A stretch of DNA of 57,600 nt from Promethearchaeota archaeon (GTDB lineage: Archaea > Asgardarchaeota > Lokiarchaeia > Sigyniarchaeales > SOKP01): the NCBI GenBank assembly GCA_013375475.1, contig JABXKD010000009.1, positions 1-57,600 of the forward strand, given 5' to 3'. Positions 6,439-18,275 of the stretch are shown piece by piece. The position numbers were made by a program, and so were the translations under genes. Position 1 is the stretch's first letter. Each line of letters starts with the position of its first letter. A model generated the notes under the pieces. That model saw only the letters and a program-made list of their open reading frames with translations, made no database searches and was not told the DNA's origin.

Positions 6439-7533
6439 TTATTTCTTCACCTTTAGTGAAGTCATTTTTTTCAACCAATTGATTTTTTTAGGTTGCCATT
6501 CTGAAATCTGATCAGCAGGAATAATATATCGTTCGATATATCCTGTGGCGAGTAATGAATCTATTAAACTACGACCTTTTTCAGTTCGAGTAAGAATCAT
6601 TGAATAACTTTTAGCGGCTCCAGAGGCTCCAATGCTAAGATCTGAAAATCTCCCTACAAAATCATCACATTCATGACAATGATTCCTTACTGCATCATCA
6701 AGGTCTTTAATATTCACTTCCTTAACAGAGTCATCTTTTGATGTGACAAAGAAGTTCTTCTTAATATTTGTTTTTTTAATATCTGAAGGATTTTTTTTAG
6801 TTTTTGACCTTAGCGCAGCCATCAATTTATCATAATCAAAATTTTCAAAACAAAAAAGACCAATAACTATACTTATAACATGTGCAGGTTTAATATTCAA
6901 AAGCTTCATTTTACTAATAGCTCTACATTGGCACGGTGTCCCAATAAAGGCAATTCGTAATTGATCGCTATCATAAATGCGTTTCTTTTGAGAAATGATG
7001 TCTTCTGCGATTTGAGTCAAATCTTTTAATGGTAAAATATTAGATGAAATCGAATATCGAGTCCCTGCTGATTTTACTAAATCATCTTTACTGTATATTA
7101 TTTTGGGTATTGGTTTAAAATTATCATCGTATTCTGATACAATTGCGGCATCAATATTATTAGTATCAAATAAATAAGTTAAAAGAGTTGATACAATACC
7201 CCCATCTTGTCCAACTTCTTTAAATTTTGTATTTGTTGTCCTGGCGGCGAGTATATCAATTATGTTCCCAAGTTCATCTTTAATTAAGTGTGTTTCTTTT
7301 AATTTATCTAATAATGGTTCTGTTTGCGGACAAATATAATAACAATACCCACATTCTTTACAATTTTCAACACTTTTATCAGTTTTAAACTTAGGATTAT
7401 AATTTTCCATCTCAATAACGTTAAATGCTTGGTTTTCACAATATGCTATACAAGCGCCACAAGCACAACATCTATTGACTGAGATTACATCATCTTCCAA
7501 ATTTCTGAATGTTTTTATATCTACTAATCCCAT
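6439..7533 (-). CDS. Coenzyme F420 hydrogenase/dehydrogenase beta-subunit family protein (FrhB/FdhB/FpoF-like) with N-terminal ferredoxin
   Basis: CCACGACIAYC and CKECGYCYYICP; GQDGGIVS, SAGTRY, GTPCQ, IGLFCFENF, CHECDDF motifs. Confidence 0.88.
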   Translation of the reverse strand: MGLVDIKTFRNLEDDVISVNRCCACGACIAYCENQAFNVIEMENYNPKFKTDKSVENCKECGYCYYICPQTEPLLDKLKETHLIKDELGNIIDILAARTTNTKFKEVGQDGGIVSTLLTYLFDTNNIDAAIVSEYDDNFKPIPKIIYSKDDLVKSAGTRYSISSNILPLKDLTQIAEDIISQKKRIYDSDQLRIAFIGTPCQCRAISKMKLLNIKPAHVISIVIGLFCFENFDYDKLMAALRSKTKKNPSDIKKTNIKKNFFVTSKDDSVKEVNIKDLDDAVRNHCHECDDFVGRFSDLSIGASGAAKSYSMILTRTEKGRSLIDSLLATGYIERYIIPADQISEWQPKKINWLKKMTSLKVKK

Positions 7534-7589: not shown

Positions 7590-8453
7590 CTAAAATCCTG
7601 CTAATAATTCTTTAGGTCGAACTCGATGAAAGCTCATTCCTAATTCTTCAGGTTTGAACCCAAATGCGAGGGCTATTAACTCTGAGAGATAAAAAACAGG
7701 GAAGTTATAACCATTTTCTTTTTCTTTACTCAGTTCTCGTTGGTTGAAATCGAATTGTTGAAAACATGCTGGACATACTAGGCTAACACAATTCGCACCA
7801 GCTTCTTGAATTGACTTGAATTTGTTATCTATCATTTGTAGAGAAATTTTTTTATCGGATTTCTCAAGAGGATTTCCACAGCATTCCATCTTTAATTCGT
7901 AATCTATAGAATCAGCACCTATAGCTTTAACAATTTCATCTAGAGTGTTTGGTTCAAAAGGATCATCCCAATTAATAATCTCAGAAGGTCTTAAATAATG
8001 ACACCCATAATGAACGGCAACTTTAAAACCAGTTAAAGGACGTTCCACATTTTCTCTTACTTTATCAAGATTTTCATAAAGAACCTGAGCGAAATGCTTT
8101 ACTTCAGTTTTACCCTCATATTTTTTACCAACAATCTTTAAGATTTTATTTACATCATTCTTTATTTCAGAATCTTTGTTTATATAGTAATTAACTCCTT
8201 TAAGAGTTTCAACACAACCCGAACAAAAAGAGATAATTCCACCATTATTATTTGATAAGCTTAAATTTCTTGCACCTAAAGCTAACCAAGTTTTATGATC
8301 TATAAGTTCTATACCCGTTGGATCAGGACAACAACTAAACCCATCAACATCATTCAATTTAATACCAAGCTTTTCAAATACTTTTCTTGAAGATGCTTCT
8401 AAGAATGGAAGCCTTGCCGGAATTACACACCCTAAAAATAAATCATAAGACAT
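7590..8453 (-). CDS. hdrB: Heterodisulfide reductase subunit B
   Basis: FLGC, SCCP, CSGC, HYGCH, ECCG, CPAC..QFD CCG-domain motifs. Confidence 0.92.
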   Translation of the reverse strand: MSYDLFLGCVIPARLPFLEASSRKVFEKLGIKLNDVDGFSCCPDPTGIELIDHKTWLALGARNLSLSNNNGGIISFCSGCVETLKGVNYYINKDSEIKNDVNKILKIVGKKYEGKTEVKHFAQVLYENLDKVRENVERPLTGFKVAVHYGCHYLRPSEIINWDDPFEPNTLDEIVKAIGADSIDYELKMECCGNPLEKSDKKISLQMIDNKFKSIQEAGANCVSLVCPACFQQFDFNQRELSKEKENGYNFPVFYLSELIALAFGFKPEELGMSFHRVRPKELLAGF

Positions 8454-8456
8454 ATT

Positions 8457-8954
8457 TTATGCTCCCTCCTTTGGAATGTTATTTTCAAACTTAGTTTCTT
8501 TTAATATTTTCTTAATTTCATCAACTGGTGCTGTTTTTATGGAAGGAAGGCGCAATTTCTCCCGTCTGGTAATAATGGCTTTTGAATATGGAAGTGCAAC
8601 TCCATTTTCTAAAACAGTTCTCCCTTGTGAAATAAAAGCTTCAGGAACTTTGCCAGTATTAAAACATTTATTTTTTATTAATGTAAAAATTTCAGTAATC
8701 TCAACTTTTTGAGGACATAGCTCAACGCATGTCTGACAGGTTGAACAAAGCCAAGGATTAGGATCTTGTCTTATTATTAATTTATCCTCTAACCCTAAAA
8801 TCGCTTGTTCTATAATTTTTCTAGGATTATAACTACCTTGAGTTATCAGAGCAACGGGGCAACCACCACTACATGTACTACACTGATAGCAGTACTGTAA
8901 AGAAGCATTATGTTTCAATACTTCATTTCGAAACTCAAAATTTATTACAGACAT
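8457..8954 (-). CDS. hdrC: Heterodisulfide reductase subunit C
   Basis: CYQCSTCSGGCP and WLCSTCQTCVELCPQ; immediately upstream of hdrB. Confidence 0.92.
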   Translation of the reverse strand: MSVINFEFRNEVLKHNASLQYCYQCSTCSGGCPVALITQGSYNPRKIIEQAILGLEDKLIIRQDPNPWLCSTCQTCVELCPQKVEITEIFTLIKNKCFNTGKVPEAFISQGRTVLENGVALPYSKAIITRREKLRLPSIKTAPVDEIKKILKETKFENNIPKEGA

Positions 8955-9185: not shown

Positions 9186-9422
9186 GATCAAAGTTGATCA
9201 AAATCTTTCTAAAATGTTGTAATCTTTCAGATATAGTTTTGATGATCGCTTTTAAAAGTAATAATGATCGATTACATCGATTTTAACTATTACTTTTCGA
9301 TAAAATTATCTTTCTGAGCTATATATGATCAATTTCCAGGATCTATGTGTTGAAAACAGCATCACACGATCAAGATTATGCAAATATATTCTTTTCAAAA
9401 CAAGAAATGTCGAAGAACGATC
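9186..9422. promoter_or_regulatory. GATC-dense intergenic tract between the divergent hdr operon and the 85-aa gene
   Basis: GATC at 9186, 9196, 9244, 9266, 9327, 9340, 9368 and 9419 (8 in 237 bp of AT-rich DNA); function inferred only. Confidence 0.45.
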
Positions 9423-9529
9423 ATCTTTAAATATGAAAACATTATATTATTATATTATGGTAATAAACATTTATAAAATAAATTAAAATTTCCCAAAAAG
9501 TAAATAAAAAATAATGGAGTGATAAAAAA

Positions 9530-9787
9530 ATGTGTAATAATTGTAATTGTGAAGCATATGATCAATGTTCCATAGTAGGATACCTGCCTGTAGGATTCTG
9601 TTGTGTTAATTGTTATCTTTATAACGAGGCACACACTTGTTTAGAATCAAGGACAAAGGAAAAAGTGTCTAAAATTGAACCTGTGAGCGCTACAATTGAA
9701 GATGGAGTTTTAAAAGTCGTTATAAGAAAGGATGAGAAAGAGGTTCCATTAATCATTAATTTAAACAAACAATTAAGTTCTGAGTAA
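9530..9787 (+). CDS. Small Cys-rich protein (8 Cys in the first 37 aa) with an Hsp20/alpha-crystallin-like C-terminal motif
   Basis: GGAGTGA SD upstream; CxxCxC-x5-C...CCxxC...HxC; VSATIEDGVLKVVIRK resembles the Hsp20 A-x-x-x-(N/D)GVL motif; T6 tract after the stop. Confidence 0.75.
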   Translation: MCNNCNCEAYDQCSIVGYLPVGFCCVNCYLYNEAHTCLESRTKEKVSKIEPVSATIEDGVLKVVIRKDEKEVPLIINLNKQLSSE

Positions 9788-9821
9788 AAATTTTTTAATT
9801 AATTATTCAGTGAAGTCTAAA

Positions 9822-9929
9822 TATTCCGATAAAAAGTAAAAGGGTCAGTTCCCTGATATCTCCGTGAACGATGATTGGACATTGAGGTGAGTATTTTACG
9901 GACGAAGTCAGGGAGCTGGTATCGGAATA
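9822..9929 (+). ncRNA. Putative structured small RNA: long hairpin with an apical K-turn/K-loop-like motif
   Basis: Nested helices TATTCCGATA(9822-31)/TATCGGAATA(9920-29), CAGTTCCCTGA(9846-56)/TCAGGGAGCTG(9908-18), TCCGTGA(9861-67)/TTACGGA(9896-9902). The non-Watson-Crick positions are G-U on the + strand. Apical gAUGAU...UGA; GC-rich island in AT-rich intergenic DNA. Confidence 0.6.
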
Positions 9930-9969
9930 AATGTGAAAATTGAAAAAATAACCAAAAAAGAAAATTGAT

Positions 9970-10236
9970 TTACATATTAGCTAAATATTCGTTTAGCACG
10001 ATGTTTAACTCTACTTCTGAGTTTTGGATCTTCTTTACAAGTTGTCGAAGCCCAAACTCGTTTAACAATAAATCTATGAGATTTTTATAAATTGCTGTAA
10101 TATTATCTTTCCCTGCCTCATAATAAAAATCATCTTCTCTTAGGGAAAGATCTAAAATCTCATATAAACCTTTTACGGCGTCTTTTATATTCTCAAAATT
10201 CATTTCAGCTTTTTCTTTCGATCTAAAACTGTTCAT
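9970..10236 (-). CDS. Hypothetical 88-aa alpha-helical protein
   Basis: Strong GAGGTGA SD, TATA-like box upstream, oligo-T tracts after the stop; no family recognised. Confidence 0.75.
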   Translation of the reverse strand: MNSFRSKEKAEMNFENIKDAVKGLYEILDLSLREDDFYYEAGKDNITAIYKNLIDLLLNEFGLRQLVKKIQNSEVELNIVLNEYLANM

Positions 10237-10243
10237 AGTAACT

Positions 10244-10300
10244 TACTCACCTCAATAATATTATGTGAATTTTCATATATAAATATGACGGTTTTCGTCA
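10244..10300 (-). promoter_or_regulatory. Promoter/leader of the 88-aa gene: palindrome, TATA-like box and SD
   Basis: TGACG-GTTTT-CGTCA (10286-10300); minus-strand TTTATATAT (10283-10275); ATTGAGGTGAGTA (10256-10244) 7 nt before the ATG. Confidence 0.55.
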
Positions 10301-10620
10301 CGGACATAAAGGTTTCATATCTATAATATGAGTCATAACTGACACGAGAAGTAAAGAATTAGTCGCCCAACGACGATAGTAATGATATACAATTTTTGAA
10401 AGTAGTCACGGAATAATATGTTAAACTACATAATACTTAATAAAGAGAAACGACCATGTGTGTAGGGATCATTCAAATAATATTAGCTTTTGATCAAAAA
10501 CAGAATTAAAAACAGAGTTAATGATGAATAGGATACTTCTACTTATGAAATGTTGTATTTTAAAAGAAAAGAATCAAAATAATTTTTTTTTACAAAAGAA
10601 AAAAAAATACTAATTTTATT

Positions 10621-12102
10621 TTAGTCGTGAATAGGGCGCCCCTTCTTATGGATTGCTTTACCTATGACAGACTCAGAACCTTCTAACACCATCTCAGATA
10701 TTGTAGGATGACTATGGATTGTCTCTGCGACATCATGGATTGTTAATCCATGTTGCATAGCTAGAGCAATTTCAGATATTAATTCGGGTGCTTCAGCTCC
10801 AATACAAGAAGCTCCAATGATTTTATATGTGTTTTTATCGGCAAGTACCATAATAAAACCTTCTTCTTCACCCATACACTTAGCTTTACCAAGTGATTCA
10901 TAAGGAAATTGACCCATCAAGACATTAATTCCCATATCTTTAGCAACTTTTCTTCTATAGCCTACAGATCCTATATTTGGGGATGTGAAAATTGTTGCTG
11001 GAATTACAGCGTAATCAGGTTTCATTTCATTAACAGGAAAGCCTCCAATACTGGCTAAAGCATTTGCAACTGCGATATCACCCTCATAACTGGCTACATG
11101 AGCAAGCATAAGTCCTCCTGTGACATCTCCGATTGCATAAATTCCTTTCAAAGAAGTCTCTAATGTATTTTTATTGACTTTTATAGCATCCCGGTCAGTT
11201 TCTATACCAAGTGTTTTTAATCCAAGATCTTTTGATTTTTTTATGCGTCCAATGGATACTAGACATAAATCAGCTTCATAGATAGATTTTTCAGCAGAAT
11301 TTATTTGATCTCGTGAAATGGATGCATTACAGGTTGTCGCTTTTACTCCAGAACCCGTGTTTTCTACAGATAGTACATTTTGCGAAGTATAGAGTTCAAT
11401 TCCCAATTCATCAAACTTTTTTATTAAAACCTTTACAATCATAGGTTCTTCTGTAGCAATTGCGGAGGGAAGATACTCAAGTATGGTTACTTTACTACCA
11501 AACATTGTAAAAATATTAGCAAATTCACAGCCAATAACACCTGCGCCAATAATTAAAAGTCTCTTAGGTATAGTTTTAAAATCAGGATGTAAAATATCAT
11601 CACTTGTTAAAATCCGTTCATGATCGATATTAAATGCAGGAATTAGAGCAGGTGAGGAGCCTGTTGCGATAATTGCTCTTTTTGCTTTAATTACTGCATT
11701 ATTTTCGCCTTCAACCGAGACTTCAAATCCATTATTAATATCTCCCCTTATAATTTTACCGTGACCTTTATACACATCATTTTTCCAAGCTTTCTCTAAT
11801 TGCTCAATTCCACCAACTAATTGTTCTACTACTTTATTTTTTCTTTCGACAGCTTTAGCAAAATCTAATTTATAATCAGATATTTCTATTCCGAATTCAT
11901 GAGCTTCTTTAATTTTCTCAATTAAATGGGAAGACGCGTATAAAGCTTTTGTAGGGATACAACCCCAGTTAAGACAGGTACCTCCCAATTTGTCTTTTTC
12001 AATTAAAGCGACTTTTGCTCCATATTGAGCCGCCCTAATAGCCGCATGATAACCTCCTGGTCCTCCTCCAATAATCGCTAAATCATATTTATTTTCACTC
12101 AT
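10621..12102 (-). CDS. lpdA: Dihydrolipoamide dehydrogenase (E3 / glycine-cleavage L protein)
   Basis: GGGPGGY, GGTCLNWGCIP redox disulfide, GAGVIGCE, IYAIGD, HSHPTISE. Confidence 0.95.
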   Translation of the reverse strand: MSENKYDLAIIGGGPGGYHAAIRAAQYGAKVALIEKDKLGGTCLNWGCIPTKALYASSHLIEKIKEAHEFGIEISDYKLDFAKAVERKNKVVEQLVGGIEQLEKAWKNDVYKGHGKIIRGDINNGFEVSVEGENNAVIKAKRAIIATGSSPALIPAFNIDHERILTSDDILHPDFKTIPKRLLIIGAGVIGCEFANIFTMFGSKVTILEYLPSAIATEEPMIVKVLIKKFDELGIELYTSQNVLSVENTGSGVKATTCNASISRDQINSAEKSIYEADLCLVSIGRIKKSKDLGLKTLGIETDRDAIKVNKNTLETSLKGIYAIGDVTGGLMLAHVASYEGDIAVANALASIGGFPVNEMKPDYAVIPATIFTSPNIGSVGYRRKVAKDMGINVLMGQFPYESLGKAKCMGEEEGFIMVLADKNTYKIIGASCIGAEAPELISEIALAMQHGLTIHDVAETIHSHPTISEMVLEGSESVIGKAIHKKGRPIHD

Positions 12103-12840: not shown

Positions 12841-13523
12841 GTTTATTTTATTCTTCCCTTACTTTCAATGAATTATGTTTTCAGATAATAGTTATATTAA
12901 CTAAAATGAAGTCCATCTCTTTTCAGTGTAATTAATCTCAATAAGTTTTTGTTAAGATTAAATAAAGCCGATATAATATCCTAAAAGAACTAAATCAATA
13001 AAAAAAAGATTGTTCACCTTCGAAAAATGTAAAAATTACAATATATTGACTATTCAATGATAGAAATTTAAAAAATGTCTATTTCGAGCGACTTTTTTAA
13101 TACTTTTCAAGCTCTTTTTTGGTCTGCTCTTCATTAAGAAGGAGTTTAATAGTCCTAAACCGTGGATAGAGTATCATTTTTGTTAGAAATTATAACAGAG
13201 CTGACTTAGATTTAGAACTATTTCACAATATTAATGGTTCAGTATTATTAATAGATTTATATCAGCGAAAAATAACTTTTTCATCAAAAGTGATTATTGC
13301 AAGTCGAAAAAAGAAAATAATATATTTTGTCAAAACGAATTTCTTGCAATTTAAAACATATTCAATTAATGAATATACAAGTGTATTAATTCACAACAAT
13401 GTGTAAAGTTTCGATAAAACAATTTTTAAAATTCGTAATTTATTTAAATTATTTTTATATATTTGATCATAAGAATTTGATATTATATTAAAAAAATAAA
13501 ATTAAGTTATAGAGTCTATTAGT

Positions 13524-14388: not shown

Positions 14389-15576
14389 TTAAATGTATTC
14401 AATTGTAGCTGGAGGTTTCGGTGTAATATCAAAATATATATCTTTAGTGTCTGGGAACTCTAACAGCTTATATTTTAATTCTTCAATTAAATCTATCGGT
14501 AAGTTTGTAACACTTGCCGTTCTTGCATCTATGCTATTTATCGAACGAATTATTACATCATATAATCCTTCCTGGCTTTCATGAAGCTCGTAAAGAATTC
14601 TTGCGTATCCCTTTACTTGAGAAGAAAAGTGTACTAGTTTTTCAAAATCCCATTCACCCTTAATCGATAATGGAACTTCGTAAGTTCTTTGACCATTAAT
14701 AATACCCGTTACTTTTCTTAATAAAACATCCGTAGTTGTCGCAGCAAATGCTTGAAATGGTTCTTGTTCTCCTTTTTCGTTAATAATCATTGGTTTTCCA
14801 TACTTTTCCAAGTAATAATCGCTAATAGCAGATTCTACAACATCATGGACTCTTTTCTCAAAATTTAAATTTTCTAATGTCACTGGACCAATAATCCTCG
14901 CTGAAAGCGCAGGTCCCGGAAAAGCTTTCCTAAATACTAATTCATTAGGCATGTTGAAGTATTCAAGCGTTTTTCTAACTTCTGGTTTAGTAAGACTAGC
15001 AACTGGTTGGATTGTAGCTTCTACATCGTATTCAATCTCTAAATTATGCTGGCTTTTAACGAAACCTTGAGGATTTTTAGCTTTTAGTGAAAGCTCTTCT
15101 TCCAATGACATAGTTTCTTTCAGATCTGAGATTTTTGCCCCAAAACTCTCTTCGATATCTGGTAGAATGGTACCATCAGCTAACAAATGGCAATTTTCTT
15201 GTTTTATTACTCTACTTATGGTATCGGAGTACGCGTCCTTGAATAATTTTCTTTTACTTTCAGCATCTTCCTCTCCTAATATTTTAGGCAGAAATGAATC
15301 TCTAATATCTATAATTAAAACATCAGGAAATAATTTTTTAACATGTTCGCTTTCTTCTTTTCCTCTAATTATTCGCATAAGTCCGTGATCTATAAAAACG
15401 GGAATGGTTTCGATCTTAGCTTCTTTGAGCAGGAGATAGGTTGCCGAACTATCGACCCCACCAGAAAGCGCGCAGAATACTTTTTTATTTTTCGCGTGTT
15501 TTTGTAAAAATTGAACTGCTTTTTTGACAAATTTTTCGGGTTCACGAGGTGGATCTATTAACCTATGATTAAGCAT
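14389..15576 (-). CDS. guaAB: GMP synthase, ATP-pyrophosphatase (B) subunit, long form
   Basis: ALSGGVDSS PP-loop, IDHGLMR, KSQHN, FPGPALSAR, DITPKPPATIEY; no glutaminase domain. Confidence 0.85.
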   Translation of the reverse strand: MLNHRLIDPPREPEKFVKKAVQFLQKHAKNKKVFCALSGGVDSSATYLLLKEAKIETIPVFIDHGLMRIIRGKEESEHVKKLFPDVLIIDIRDSFLPKILGEEDAESKRKLFKDAYSDTISRVIKQENCHLLADGTILPDIEESFGAKISDLKETMSLEEELSLKAKNPQGFVKSQHNLEIEYDVEATIQPVASLTKPEVRKTLEYFNMPNELVFRKAFPGPALSARIIGPVTLENLNFEKRVHDVVESAISDYYLEKYGKPMIINEKGEQEPFQAFAATTTDVLLRKVTGIINGQRTYEVPLSIKGEWDFEKLVHFSSQVKGYARILYELHESQEGLYDVIIRSINSIDARTASVTNLPIDLIEELKYKLLEFPDTKDIYFDITPKPPATIEYI

Positions 15577-16634: not shown

Positions 16635-18275
16635 TCACTTTTTTAATGCTTCCAAATCTTTTAATTCTCGATGTAACACTTTTCCAACAACTGTCTTTGG
16701 AATTTCATCAATAAATTCTACAAAGCGTGGATACTTATCAAATGCCATGTTATTTTTTGCCCAATCGATGATATCTTGTTCATTGATTTCTTTTCCTTTA
16801 TAATCTTCTTTAAGTACAACATAAGCTTTGATATTTTCCTTTCCTTCGTCATCTATGATTCCTATAACGCCACATTCCTGAATTGCTTCATGGTAATACA
16901 AAAGATCTTCGACCTCAGTAGGATAAACGGAATGCCCCTTATACTTGATTAAATTCTTTAGTCTGTCTTTAATGAGAAAATAACCATCTTCATCCATTAG
17001 CGCTAGATCCCCCGTCCACAACCAGCCATCCTTGATTGTGTTTTTAGTTTCCTCATCCCGTTTATAATAACCTTTCATCATCTGCGGCCCTCTTGTTACA
17101 ATTTCTCCAACTTCTCCAATCCCAAGTGTATTGCCGTTAGGATCGCAAATTTTTACATCTGTATTCGGAAACGGCATGCCAATTGTACCTGGTTTGAAAT
17201 TAGCTTCAAAAGGGTTTGCCGTAACGGCTGGGGACATCTCGGTTAACCCATACGCTTCTCGAAGCTTGGATCCAGTAAGGCCTTCGAATGTTTTTCTTAC
17301 ATCGTCGGGAAGGGGGCCCGCCGAACTTAAACAATATTTAATGCTTGATAAGTTGTGATTTTGGATTCCTTCGTAAATATTTAGATTATTATAAATAGCA
17401 GCTACTCCAGGAAATACAGTAACTTTAGTTGCTTCGATGACTTCGATGACTTCGTGAGCTTCCCGAGGATTAAACACACATGCTAGTTTCCATCCATTAT
17501 GTACGCACATGTTCATCATAAAACCCATGTATATGTGATAAAATGGTAACGCAGCTAATAATACTTCTTTACCTAATTCCTTTTCAACAAACCATGATTC
17601 AGCTTGAAAAATATTAGCAGCAATACTTCCGTGGGTTAACATAGCTCCCTTAGGGAATCCTGTTGTTCCACCCGTATATTGCAATTGAGCTAAATCGTCT
17701 TGAGTGATTTCTACTTCCGGTGGATTTGGTATTGTTTCCCGTATTAGATCTTCCATCATAGGATCACCTCCTATGGAAAATTCAGGAGGTGCCATAGGAT
17801 CAGGTGATAAAAAAGGCGATAAGTTGCTATAAAACTTGTGTTTTACACCAGTTTCGCCTATAATCGGATCAACTAATCCAGAAAAACCTTCCCAACCGAT
17901 ATAACTTATTGCGTCACTGTCGTTGAGTTGCCGCTTAATCTCAAGTTTTTTAAATAATGGCGAGATTGGAGTGACAATTCCACCAATCTTCAAAATACCG
18001 TAATAATAAGCAATAAAAGCGGGATTATTAGTAAATTGGATTGCTATACAATCACCTTTCTTTATACCAAGTTCGGTTAATTTTGTTGCTACACGATAGA
18101 CAATATCAAGTAACATAGAATAGGTGAGTTCGAACCCCATGAAATATGTTACTACATTATTAGGATAAATTTTTGCAGAATCTTCAAGAAAATCAATTAA
18201 AGTCTTATTTGGAATTTGAATTTCTTTTGGAACTCCCTTTGGCCAATATTTGTAGTAAATTTTTTGATCTGACAT
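16635..18275 (-). CDS. Long-chain fatty acid--CoA ligase (AMP-binding family)
   Basis: YTGGTTGFPKG, YGLTE, WTGDLA, PKTVVGKVL. Confidence 0.92.
   Translation of the reverse strand: MSDQKIYYKYWPKGVPKEIQIPNKTLIDFLEDSAKIYPNNVVTYFMGFELTYSMLLDIVYRVATKLTELGIKKGDCIAIQFTNNPAFIAYYYGILKIGGIVTPISPLFKKLEIKRQLNDSDAISYIGWEGFSGLVDPIIGETGVKHKFYSNLSPFLSPDPMAPPEFSIGGDPMMEDLIRETIPNPPEVEITQDDLAQLQYTGGTTGFPKGAMLTHGSIAANIFQAESWFVEKELGKEVLLAALPFYHIYMGFMMNMCVHNGWKLACVFNPREAHEVIEVIEATKVTVFPGVAAIYNNLNIYEGIQNHNLSSIKYCLSSAGPLPDDVRKTFEGLTGSKLREAYGLTEMSPAVTANPFEANFKPGTIGMPFPNTDVKICDPNGNTLGIGEVGEIVTRGPQMMKGYYKRDEETKNTIKDGWLWTGDLALMDEDGYFLIKDRLKNLIKYKGHSVYPTEVEDLLYYHEAIQECGVIGIIDDEGKENIKAYVVLKEDYKGKEINEQDIIDWAKNNMAFDKYPRFVEFIDEIPKTVVGKVLHRELKDLEALKK

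Follow-up and report, generated by a model that had tools for sequence, protein, structure and literature searches.

Comparison of related genomes suggests that the message of p88, a small gene of a Promethearchaeota archaeon, may be switched off by its own downstream stem-loop. The gene lies in a stretch of 57,600 nucleotides (contig JABXKD010000009.1, positions 1 to 57,600; hereafter the window), and its ribosome-binding leader shares the 13-mer ATTGAGGTGAGTA with the apical loop of the stem-loop, the two copies lying on opposite DNA strands at 9881-9893 (+) and 10244-10256 (-), with no further copies in the window. The identity of loop and leader and the inverted repeat that brackets the 88-aa gene, as set out in the original prediction, are confirmed at the same coordinates. 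The features of the locus are as follows.

9530..9787, + strand: cys85, a Cys-rich 85-aa gene (open reading frame)
9841..9920, - strand: conserved stem-loop (hairpin) of ~80 nt (folds and covariance model R1)
9881..9893, + strand: loop copy of the 13-mer, with the core GAGGTGAGT at 9884-9892
9930..9969, - strand: spacer between the p88 stop codon and the hairpin (sequence; the hairpin as defined by the covariance model begins at 9920)
9970..10236, - strand: p88, an 88-aa open reading frame of a small unnamed family
10237..10256, - strand: p88 leader, with the 13-mer at 10256-10244, the Shine-Dalgarno (SD) sequence GGTGA and an inferred start at 10253
10257..10590, - strand: conserved non-coding region of ~330 nt upstream of p88 (22-locus alignment), originally described as an operator array
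10276..10283, - strand: p88 TATA box TTTATATA (sequence and locus alignment)
10518..10549, - strand: degenerate additional copy of the adjacent Lpd-like gene's 3' end (locus alignment)

p88 and its upstream region

Homologues of p88 form at least 80 clusters at 62-100% identity, with 63 representatives among 1.84 billion proteins. The protein is rich in Asp, Glu and Lys and, judged by sequence and predicted model, acidic, soluble and all-helical, with no hydrophobic stretch of membrane-spanning length; the structure model consists of four amphipathic helices (pLDDT 78.7). A Foldseek search of this model against the PDB gave no match with E ≤ 0.001, a search of the ESM Atlas with p88 gave none, and neither p88 nor cys85 matches a PADLOC, NCBIfam or significant Pfam family. 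The suggestion of a toxin-antitoxin-like unit is not borne out by these properties. Two p88 paralogues in the same genome have neither the hairpin nor a p88-type leader.

The minus-strand copy of the 13-mer ends 7 nt before the ATG of p88, and the TATA box is found 30 nt upstream of position 10253, a G that forms the fourth base of the 13-mer. This box is unchanged in 17 of 22 aligned loci, the other five showing one or two base differences, and its spacing to the motif is fixed, with no indel in the alignment. From the usual geometry of archaeal promoters we take the p88 transcript to start at ~10253; because of the position of the TATA box, the earlier placement of the start near the beginning of the 13-mer is reasonable. 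The 10257-10590 region is kept regardless of the upstream gene, and the remnant of the Lpd 3' end accompanies the p88 block also at loci that have no Lpd gene in front of it. In the sister genus the region contains several GATC palindromes, two of which flank the TATA box; these are degenerate in the window. A search with the palindrome pattern returned 12 records, five of them bacterial chance matches.

A conserved stem-loop carries the anti-leader in its loop

The stem-loop consists of an 11-bp stem (P1), a second stem of ~10 bp with two bulges (P2) and a 29-nt apical loop. The copy in the window has an additional 10-bp outer stem that extends it to 9822-9929, with the + strand copy of the 13-mer in its apical part; the extended element folds with -44.6 kcal/mol (z -6.3) on the + strand and -30.6 kcal/mol (z -5.1) on the opposite strand. 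Read on the minus strand, the loop copy is the anti-leader UACUCACCUC, which is unpaired in the minus-strand fold. The hairpin scores 74.4 bits with covariance model R1 and is single-copy in its genome.

RNAalifold, run on the aligned hairpins, missed the stem on the + strand and found part of it on the other, so the structure was set by hand from single folds. With this structure, 93.3% of 476 pair cells in 23 distinct aligned hairpin copies are standard pairs, versus 25-53% when the partners are slid. Covariation in the stem is weak, with double changes at 3 of 21 pairs, and a strand test based on G.U versus A.C pairs is ambiguous (19 pair cells fit the p88 direction only and 12 the opposite strand only). 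In the p88-direction fold, the anti-leader lies in the unpaired apical loop for most of the 23 copies, exceptions being L021-L024, in which its first letters are paired.

No known RNA family was identified: Rfam at gathering thresholds gave no matches across the whole window, a permissive Rfam search of 9400-10650 gave two chance-level matches (E 4.4 and 9.7), both off the hairpin, and a tRNA/tmRNA scan gave none. A reading of the loop as a K-turn, C/D box or L7Ae site was rejected, as by eye the boxes and spacing of these elements do not fit. A small open reading frame using the SD-like sequence of the loop is ruled out, there being no ATG, GTG or TTG at SD spacing after 9881-9893, in agreement with the original description. 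The motif also resembles the eukaryotic splice-donor consensus, a likeness without supporting evidence of any kind.

Loop and leader are conserved and change together

The window alone gives no unusual match, and the case for the significance of the 13-mer therefore lies in its conservation in relatives. The leader motif TTGAGGTGAGTAAGT was found in all 33 loci that include a 5' region (with one change in 7 of them). The hairpin follows directly behind p88 in 32 of 33 loci fetched with p88, and in the remaining locus (L036) the contig ends 64 nt after the stop codon. In all 24 species-level genomes with a full p88 beside the hairpin, a core of 9-10 nt is common to leader and loop; it comprises at minimum GAGGTGAGT, or a form of this sequence that is matched or wobble-compatible. 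The p88 proteins of these genomes are 73-100% identical, and the spacers and loop flanks around the core vary. Conservation of the 13-mer is confined to the core (T)GAGGTGAGT(A) and does not extend to its first three letters (ATT). Orthologous loci thus keep the match, and by this conservation we consider the loop/leader observation to be real.

The check for co-variation of loop and leader that was originally suggested showed two joint changes. A matched G->A change occurs in L002, L014, L015, L033, L034 and L037, and a matched T->C change in L026/G106. This co-variation amounts to two or three events, with a rough combined chance probability of ~0.03-0.08. Core changes confined to the loop in p88-adjacent copies (L017/G148, L031, L026 and L042) all give G.U pairs with the leader in the p88-direction RNA, and the reverse state (leader A, loop G) occurs in none of the 33 loci. 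By itself the G.U-compatible pattern has no significance, as 7 of the 9 possible loop transitions would be compatible. In three genomes the last A of the motif is changed in the loop only, giving a mismatch at the duplex end. The leader-loop duplex has a mean energy of -18.2 kcal/mol over the 24 genomes, compared with approximately -10 to -12.5 kcal/mol for shuffled hairpins. Furthermore, the motif is kept in 24 of 24 p88-adjacent hairpin copies (with 1-3 changes allowed) and lost in 13 of 29 other copies; the 16 distal copies that keep it have no leader of their own nearby.

A proposed self-pairing p88 message

The explanation we favour, tentatively and at close to even likelihood, is that a p88-direction RNA bearing the anti-leader loop pairs with the 5' end and SD of the p88 mRNA and thereby limits p88. 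The two copies are inverted on the DNA, and p88-direction RNA through the stem-loop would therefore present, in an open loop, a sequence exactly complementary to the leader. The leader element would comprise the first ~10 nt of the predicted p88 mRNA (start ~10253), including the SD GGTGA, and the loop element would be the apex of the ~80-nt stem-loop, 49-77 nt behind the stop codon across the 24 genomes. The pairing partner could be the read-through p88 mRNA itself, or an RNA cut from or started in the p88 3' region. The resulting duplex of 10 bp (~-18 kcal/mol) would block ribosome binding and/or alter mRNA decay, giving self-limiting control of p88, and shorter transcripts ending at T runs before the hairpin would escape it. 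What has been observed is that the two elements are conserved and complementary, that substitutions in them match and that the loop is open; transcription of the hairpin in the p88 direction, formation of the pairing and its proposed effect are inferred. Of the two models originally put forward, the better fit is given by the second, with a minus-strand RNA whose UACUCACCUCA folds back onto the SD of that RNA. No gene is evident for the antisense RNA that this model included.

The spacer at 9930-9969 contains minus-strand T runs (T4, T6, T6 and T4) that could be transcription ends, and 20 of the 24 genomes have a run of at least T5 in the interval from stop codon to hairpin; T runs follow the hairpin in 21 of 24. 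In archaea, spacer T runs of this kind should end many p88 transcripts before the hairpin. Among the sequencing runs, part of the stretch was found in just one RNA run, as one contig (9924-10143, 2 differences) that begins within p88, spans the T-rich spacer and stops at the hairpin foot; the library is unstranded and DNA carry-over is possible. Small shares of the stretch in other runs were left out of account, and gaps in coverage were given no weight as evidence. A separate promoter for a hairpin RNA was not apparent, with no conserved TATA at a fixed distance on either strand and surroundings that are AT-rich throughout. Eighteen model transcripts were folded, of which two without the exact anti-leader pattern were set aside. 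The 5'-3' pairing appeared in the minimum free energy structure of 3 of the 16 scored, only with the hairpin opened. Nested folding is unsuited to this pairing, because 5' end and hairpin loop together form a pseudoknot.

The stem-loop marks an insertion hot spot

Genomes of the sister genus have as many as 5 copies of the hairpin, which border cassettes inserted between p88 and cys85; the hairpin is therefore also an insertion or attachment site. Two to five copies are present in 18 of 26 hairpin-bearing genomes, mostly on one contig and in one orientation, 0.4-12 kb apart; G091 has five, of which four share a strand and are separated from each other by one or two genes, the fifth being on the opposite strand. 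The cassettes comprise 1-9 genes, with both orientations represented. Among 35 cassette and flank proteins scanned, we found six LRR proteins, one TIR, one SIR2+TPR and one weak Piwi match, with no PF00589 or other recombinase; G000 has one PF00589 gene, on a different contig (C55).

Direct repeats with hybrid arms flank inserted DNA in G086, G084, G112, G103 and G098, and often include the p88 3' end. In G086, the sequence common to copies 1 and 2 is limited to a stretch that starts at the motif (hairpin nt 26) and reaches 137 nt beyond the hairpin; copies 2 and 3 have the whole hairpin in common, and what copies 1 and 3 share is limited to the segment between the motif and the 3' arm, this arm included. 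Here the 3' part of the hairpin, in p88-direction reading, comes from the inserted DNA, so the p88-adjacent copy stays whole. The repeats of G084 and G112 (226 and 204 nt) end within 1-2 nt of the hairpin 3' end. Each insertion in the sister genomes leaves a further copy of the stem-loop.

It could be supposed that the stem-loop is primarily a DNA recombination or attachment site, its motif being the crossover core or a site for the recombination machinery, and the leader copy either a by-product or a second site for that factor, through which p88 expression would be linked to it. The multiple copies with cassettes between them are consistent with this, as are the arms of G086, which are hybrid as expected of attL, attP-like and attR sites, the repeat ends of G084 and G112, and a cassette content typical of mobile defence islands; CALIN-type attC arrays are moreover described as enriched in Asgard archaea (PMC9668308). 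However, no recombinase was found among the 35 proteins scanned, and the repeat boundaries vary by genome, some coinciding with the motif, some with the p88 3' end and some enclosing just the hairpin. Decay of the motif in 13 of the 29 non-p88 copies, set against none in the 24 beside p88, also argues against this supposition, and a site core explains neither why one copy lies exactly at the p88 transcript start and SD nor the matched substitutions. As the reason for the loop/leader identity we thus consider an attachment site unlikely, if the strongest of the alternatives; as a role of the stem-loop it is compatible with self-pairing, and a rival in respect of the identity only.

A wider proposal, which we rate as rather improbable, is that the locus represents an undescribed integron-like cassette platform of Lokiarchaeia, with the stem-loop as recombination site, p88 as a component and p88 translation tied to the site. 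Defence-type cassettes would be captured between p88 and cys85; p88, the sole gene always heading the array, would belong to the platform; and its translation would be tied to the state or transcription of the site via the complementarity of loop and 5' end. If true, an RNA switch and a DNA landing pad would be combined in one element. The loci may be among the archaeal attC arrays tabulated in the supplement of PMC9668308.

The Cys-rich gene at the far side of the hairpin, originally counted as a third element of the unit, proved to be separate. Homologues of cys85 form at least 84 clusters, the named ones belonging to Lokiarchaeota/Promethearchaeota, and the ESM Atlas returned unnamed Promethearchaeota clusters only. 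The gene adjoins p88 in only 15 of 35 loci and can be parted from it by inserted genes spanning up to 12-17 kb, and in arrays the last hairpin copy adjoins its 3' end. In 10 of 10 other loci of the same genus (L003-L012), cys85 homologues lie upstream of hdrC without hairpin or p88. Hence cys85 is the far flank gene of the insertion spot, outside the conserved unit that hairpin and leader form with p88.

Other readings of the loop/leader identity

The first of the two original models, a mimic or decoy, held that the + strand RNA titrates a factor that binds the leader; in a wider form, the two sites themselves would compete for one factor, either a protein or the 16S rRNA 3' end. The two copies are indeed identical in sense on opposite strands, the + strand gives the more stable fold in the window, the 12 stem cells noted above pair on that strand only, and GAGGTGA can base-pair with the 16S 3' end of the assembly (...GGATCACCTCCT). 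However, the conserved core exceeds the anti-SD match by the GT after GAGGTGA, and L026 is changed exactly there in both copies. The + strand lacks a T run after the hairpin, so that such an RNA would run antisense into p88, and neither strand offers it a conserved TATA box at a fixed distance. As for the factor, p88 itself is a poor candidate because it is acidic by sequence. A shared protein site gives no reason for matched substitutions, and every loop-only change of the core is of a kind that pairing tolerates. We therefore regard competition for a factor as distinctly improbable, and less likely than the fold-back model.

That the identity is functionless, a product of chance and generic SD-likeness, would agree with what is seen in the window alone. 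Two 13-mer matches occur there versus 0.07 expected from shuffles, but seven of the 13 nt are SD consensus, and exact 13-nt inverted repeats within 600 nt number 5 in this AT-rich sequence compared with a mean of 3.6 in 200 Markov-1 simulations, 11% of which give one such repeat with at least 5 G/C; the window by itself gives no ground for calling the match unusual. While the SD-like GAGGTGA occurs 231 times in the genome, the 13-mer is confined to the same 2 sites in the whole assembly of 3,920,170 bases, contrary to the concern that it might be frequent, and so is the 10-mer GAGGTGAGTA. Furthermore, the identity is kept in 24 of 24 genomes despite differing spacers and loop flanks, and there are two matched changes. 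Conservation of the locus brings the chance reading, now very improbable, close to refutation.

Least credible of all is a DNA inversion switch in which the inverted copies serve as crossover sites and a flip uncouples p88 from its promoter: the repeats bracket p88 exactly and leave the promoter outside, but the expected inverted junction (TATA, spacing, motif and hairpin 3' arm) has no match in the genome collection, compared with 17 for the normal junction (13 in Promethearchaeota records), all 33 loci have the same orientation, no strand-change joint occurs in 4 runs (as contigs, which drop rare forms) and an invertase gene is absent nearby.

Significance

Asgard archaea are the closest prokaryotic relatives of eukaryotes, and to our knowledge very little is known of RNA-level gene control in them. 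Among the papers listed by a full-text search on Asgard non-coding and small RNAs, none describes the stem-loop in its title or the opening lines of its abstract. If the pairing is real, it would be the first archaeal case known to us of an mRNA silenced by its own downstream hairpin, and the leader-loop target is short and clear, hence easily tested by compensatory mutations. The hairpin also marks a well-defined insertion hot spot with LRR, TIR, SIR2 and Argonaute-like genes, which provides a handle on how Lokiarchaeia acquire defence genes and on the recombination system behind this acquisition; the covariance model allows such islands to be found.

Comparison with known systems

The closest parallel to a self-pairing p88 message is the icaR mRNA of Staphylococcus aureus, for which pairing between 5'-UTR and 3'-UTR is described (PMC3868564). 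In both cases the gene's SD region finds its complement in an anti-SD motif located downstream of the coding sequence, and the outcome we propose for p88, blocked initiation and altered decay, is the one given for icaR. A motif downstream of the stop that is complementary to the gene's own SD over 9-10 nt was found in all 24 genomes. Unlike icaR, p88 is archaeal, its 10-nt complement starts from the predicted mRNA 5' end, and the complement lies in the loop of a long conserved hairpin that doubles as an insertion site. The hbs mRNA of B. subtilis is reportedly a related case.

Type I toxin mRNAs such as hok of hok/sok are inhibited by fold-back, the 3' end pairing with the 5' end. The p88 mRNA resembles them in that its 5' end is complementary to a same-strand downstream element, which could keep the full-length mRNA silent. 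It differs in that p88 is not a short hydrophobic toxin and no antisense RNA gene is evident. Membership of the type I toxin-antitoxin systems was rejected, as p88 is acidic and helical and matches no toxin-antitoxin or defence model in PADLOC, NCBIfam or Pfam.

As a landing site, the hairpin resembles the targets of mobile elements that integrate into the 3' part of tRNA, tmRNA or protein genes and leave attL/attR direct repeats. A conserved structured element is used, direct repeats flank the insert, and the copy beside the conserved gene is whole while far copies are partial and decaying. In contrast, the inserted DNA carries no integrase among the 35 proteins scanned, and an unannotated hairpin located behind the gene of a small protein serves as the target. 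The CALIN-type attC arrays reported from Asgard archaea (PMC9668308) likewise have structured imperfect palindromes at cassette ends and one orientation, as do the hairpin arrays (2-5 copies in 18 of 26 genomes). No integron integrase IntI was found beside the array among the 35 cassette and flank proteins; CALINs lack IntI by definition, and this absence does not therefore exclude them. The hairpin arms, compared by eye, do not fit the R-box pattern of attC sites. The hairpin arrays further differ in having 1-9 genes per cassette in both orientations and repeats that often take in the p88 3' end, and in that they always start at one conserved gene whose leader matches the loop.

A leader motif is repeated in a conserved hairpin behind p88

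The small genes cys85 (Cys-rich, 85 aa) and p88 (88 aa) are convergent, and the stem-loop between them carries in its apical part a 13-mer of the p88 leader, the 5' stretch containing the Shine-Dalgarno (SD) sequence.

Features of the window discussed here
9530-9787, +, cys85, Cys-rich 85-aa ORF
9970-10236, -, p88, 88-aa ORF
9822-9929, stem-loop between cys85 and p88; folds at -44.6 kcal/mol, z -6.3 (+) and -30.6 kcal/mol, z -5.1 (-)
9881-9893, +, loop copy of 13-mer ATTGAGGTGAGTA, apical part of the stem-loop
10256-10244, -, leader copy of 13-mer ATTGAGGTGAGTA, 7 nt ahead of the p88 start codon
10283-10276, -, p88 TATA box, 30 nt upstream of the G at 10253
10621-12102, -, Lpd-like flavoprotein gene, flank
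7590-8954, -, hdrC/hdrB, flank

The identity of the loop and leader 13-mers put forward in the original prediction was confirmed. A genome-wide count found the 13-mer to be rare, with the two copies in the window and no further copy in the whole 3.92-Mb, 32.5% G+C assembly. The 10-mer GAGGTGAGTA is confined to the same two sites; by contrast, 231 copies of the SD-like GAGGTGA were counted in the assembly. The window holds 5 exact 13-nt inverted repeats within 600 nt, compared to a mean of 3.6 in Markov simulations, and one with at least 5 G/C arises in 11% of simulated windows; judged on the window alone, the match is statistically unremarkable. The motif (10244-10256, 9881-9893) also resembles the eukaryotic splice-donor consensus, which is curious in an Asgard archaeon; nothing was found pointing to splicing.

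Loci were fetched by p88 homology (18 genome and 15 metagenome loci). The leader reads TTGAGGTGAGTAAGT in 33/33 loci with a 5' region (31 fetched, the window and a close relative), at a fixed distance to TTTATATA and with one change in 7 loci. A covariance model trained on 23 distinct copies of the hairpin places it directly behind p88 in 32/33 fetched loci, many of which contributed copies to the model; in the exception (L036) the sequence stops 64 nt past the p88 stop codon. Whole-genome scans provide an independent count: the hairpin occurs in 26/151 genomes of the order, namely 3/42 in the window's genus, 23/53 in one sister genus and 0/56 across 22 other genera. Of the 26 hairpin-bearing genomes, 24 have a copy immediately after a full p88, and each of these shares the core GAGGTGAGT or a close variant between leader and loop. 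Orthologous loci thus retain the leader/loop match. Because it is conserved in relatives, the hairpin/leader link is, on sequence comparison, a real feature of this small Lokiarchaeial gene. No Rfam family matches the hairpin.

The hairpin loop may pair with the p88 mRNA

Archaeal promoter geometry, i.e. the distance from TATA box to start, was used to locate the p88 transcript start: because the TATA box lies 30 nt upstream, the mRNA probably starts at the fourth letter of the 13-mer. The loop and leader copies are inverted on the DNA, and RNA reading through the hairpin in the p88 direction therefore carries the leader complement. This sequence, UACUCACCUC, is fully complementary to the initial 10 nt inferred for the p88 mRNA, SD included. 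In the best-supported mechanism, which we put forward tentatively at close to even chances, p88-direction RNA would present the leader complement in its hairpin loop, and the loop would pair with the 5' end and SD of the p88 mRNA. Of two RNA models proposed originally, a minus-strand RNA folding onto its own SD comes closest to this mechanism; the toxin-antitoxin reading that went with it did not hold.

In most of the 23 distinct copies the leader complement, read in the p88 direction, lies in an open 29-nt apical loop, its first letters being paired in four (L021-L024). The leader/loop duplex has a mean energy of -18.2 kcal/mol over 24 genomes, compared to about -10 to -12.5 kcal/mol for shuffled hairpins. 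Two matched changes affect leader and loop alike: G->A in six loci (L002, L014, L015, L033, L034 and L037) and T->C in one (L026/G106). Loop-only core changes (L017/G148, L031, L026 and L042) all give a G.U pair with the leader in RNA of the p88 direction, and the reverse state was not seen among the loci compared. Matched changes and G.U pattern are as RNA-RNA pairing would predict, with small numbers; we estimate a combined chance probability of roughly 0.03-0.08 for the former, and the latter by itself is not significant.

The stems leave the transcribed strand ambiguous. Among 476 stem pair cells, 93.3% are standard pairs in the p88 direction versus 91.8% on the other strand, with 19 and 12 cells, respectively, pairing in that direction only. 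T runs occur ahead of the hairpin in 20/24 genomes and behind it in 21/24. As T runs, which could end archaeal transcription, precede the hairpin, it may be confined to read-through transcripts. The sole expression evidence is one unstranded RNA-library contig (9924-10143), running from inside p88 through the T-rich spacer to the hairpin foot.

Elsewhere in the window (~17761-17810), an inverted repeat sets the 16S rRNA 3'-end letters GGATCACCTCCT opposite their complement. The window's assembly contains three 16S 3' ends (contigs C154, C222 and C263), two of them archaeal-looking; that on C263 differs in its upstream helix and may come from contamination (assembly contamination rated 6.41%).

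The hairpin is probably an insertion site

In the sister genus, genomes with the hairpin mostly carry more than one copy. Overall, 18/26 genomes hold 2-5 copies, most on one contig in one orientation and 0.4-12 kb apart, in the order Lpd - p88 - hairpin - cassette - hairpin - cassette - hairpin - cys85 - hdrC, where a cassette is the gene block between copies. In the window, where a single hairpin separates p88 from cys85, the site is empty. Whichever reading of the motif holds, there is good support for the hairpin as an insertion site. The strongest competing reading of the motif, which we regard as unlikely, takes it as the core of a recombination site. In G086, the sequence common to copies 1 and 2 is limited to the stretch from the loop motif to 137 nt beyond the hairpin; copies 2 and 3 agree over the full hairpin, and copies 1 and 3 only from motif to 3' arm. 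By sequence, this hybrid-arm arrangement is that of site-specific integration. G084 and G112 have repeats of 226 and 204 nt, respectively, which reach from the p88 3' end to within 1-2 nt of the hairpin end. The motif is kept in 24/24 p88-adjacent copies (1-3 changes allowed) and lost in 13/29 others; as a leader motif it is restricted to p88, the cassette genes being without it. For cassette content, a Pfam scan of 35 proteins gave 6 LRR, one TIR and one SIR2+TPR protein, further matches (weak Piwi, DprA-like, ankyrin, winged-helix) and no recombinase; the one tyrosine-recombinase gene of the window's assembly is on a different contig. RNA pairing and an insertion-site role can coexist. An inversion switch between the motif copies found no support, the post-inversion junction having 0 matches in the genome collection against 17 for the normal junction (13 in Promethearchaeota records).

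Several loci are unusual. L051 (G122:C83, ~6800-6900) has an intact hairpin copy with just a decayed p88 3'-end remnant, and another contig of that genome (L072) carries full p88 with its own hairpin. The heavily rearranged L088 (G091:C7) contains two C-terminal Lpd-like fragments of 76 aa each (13293-13523 and 14752-14982, - strand), near a full Lpd gene and a p88 3'-end remnant with hairpin copy. The L089 cassette (G098:C39, 6439-9855) comprises three co-directional genes, the middle one a weak Piwi match (21.5 bits, below cut-off), and may be a short Argonaute system.

p88, cys85 and the upstream region

Homologues of both proteins are from Lokiarchaeota or Promethearchaeota wherever named, which assigns the window to an Asgard archaeon. 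Neither protein has a match in Pfam (curated threshold), NCBIfam or PADLOC. The p88 family is small (63 representatives in 1.84 billion proteins). Its sequence is acidic without a hydrophobic stretch, and the predicted four-helix structure (pLDDT 78.7) has no PDB match at E <= 0.001. Two paralogues elsewhere in the genome have neither hairpin nor p88-type leader. The locus, once suggested to be toxin-antitoxin-like, is not a toxin-antitoxin system, and membership of the Cys-rich gene in the unit was not borne out: cys85 adjoins p88 in just 15/35 loci, can be many genes away, and has homologues upstream of hdrC, often tandem, without hairpin or p88 in 10/10 other same-genus loci. It borders the insertion spot on the side opposite p88 and is no partner of that gene. 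In L003-L012, cys85-related genes (~50% identity, ~1340-2050) form 1-3 tandem copies directly upstream of hdrC in the same direction, which suggests a link of the Cys-rich family with heterodisulfide-reductase-like genes.

The predicted operator array stands in part. A stretch of about 330 nt ahead of p88 is conserved in 22/22 aligned loci, independent of the preceding gene; the GATC palindromes, which in the sister genus lie on both sides of the p88 TATA box, are degenerate in the window. A small GGGG / TCCC hairpin with GATC in its loop (~10330-10365, - strand), degenerate in the window, is clearer in L018, L019, L021 and L035, and in L018 and L019 G->A with C->T keep its pairing. The final ~30 nt of the Lpd-like gene recur in degenerate form at 10518-10549 (-), ~100 nt beyond the true gene end (~10621-10660) in the downstream direction. 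This remnant also stands ahead of the p88 upstream region in loci lacking an Lpd gene; the stretch from remnant to hairpin has therefore moved, or been copied, in one piece.

Comparison with known systems

The pairing proposed for p88 would be functionally similar to the fold-back inhibition of hok. It would likewise be functionally similar to the 5'/3'-UTR pairing of icaR (PMC3868564). As an insertion site, the hairpin resembles tRNA genes used as integration targets, which likewise combine a conserved structured landing site, a whole gene-attached copy and decaying far copies. Its arms, judged by eye, do not match attC boxes; CALIN-type attC arrays have been reported to be enriched in Asgard archaea (PMC9668308).
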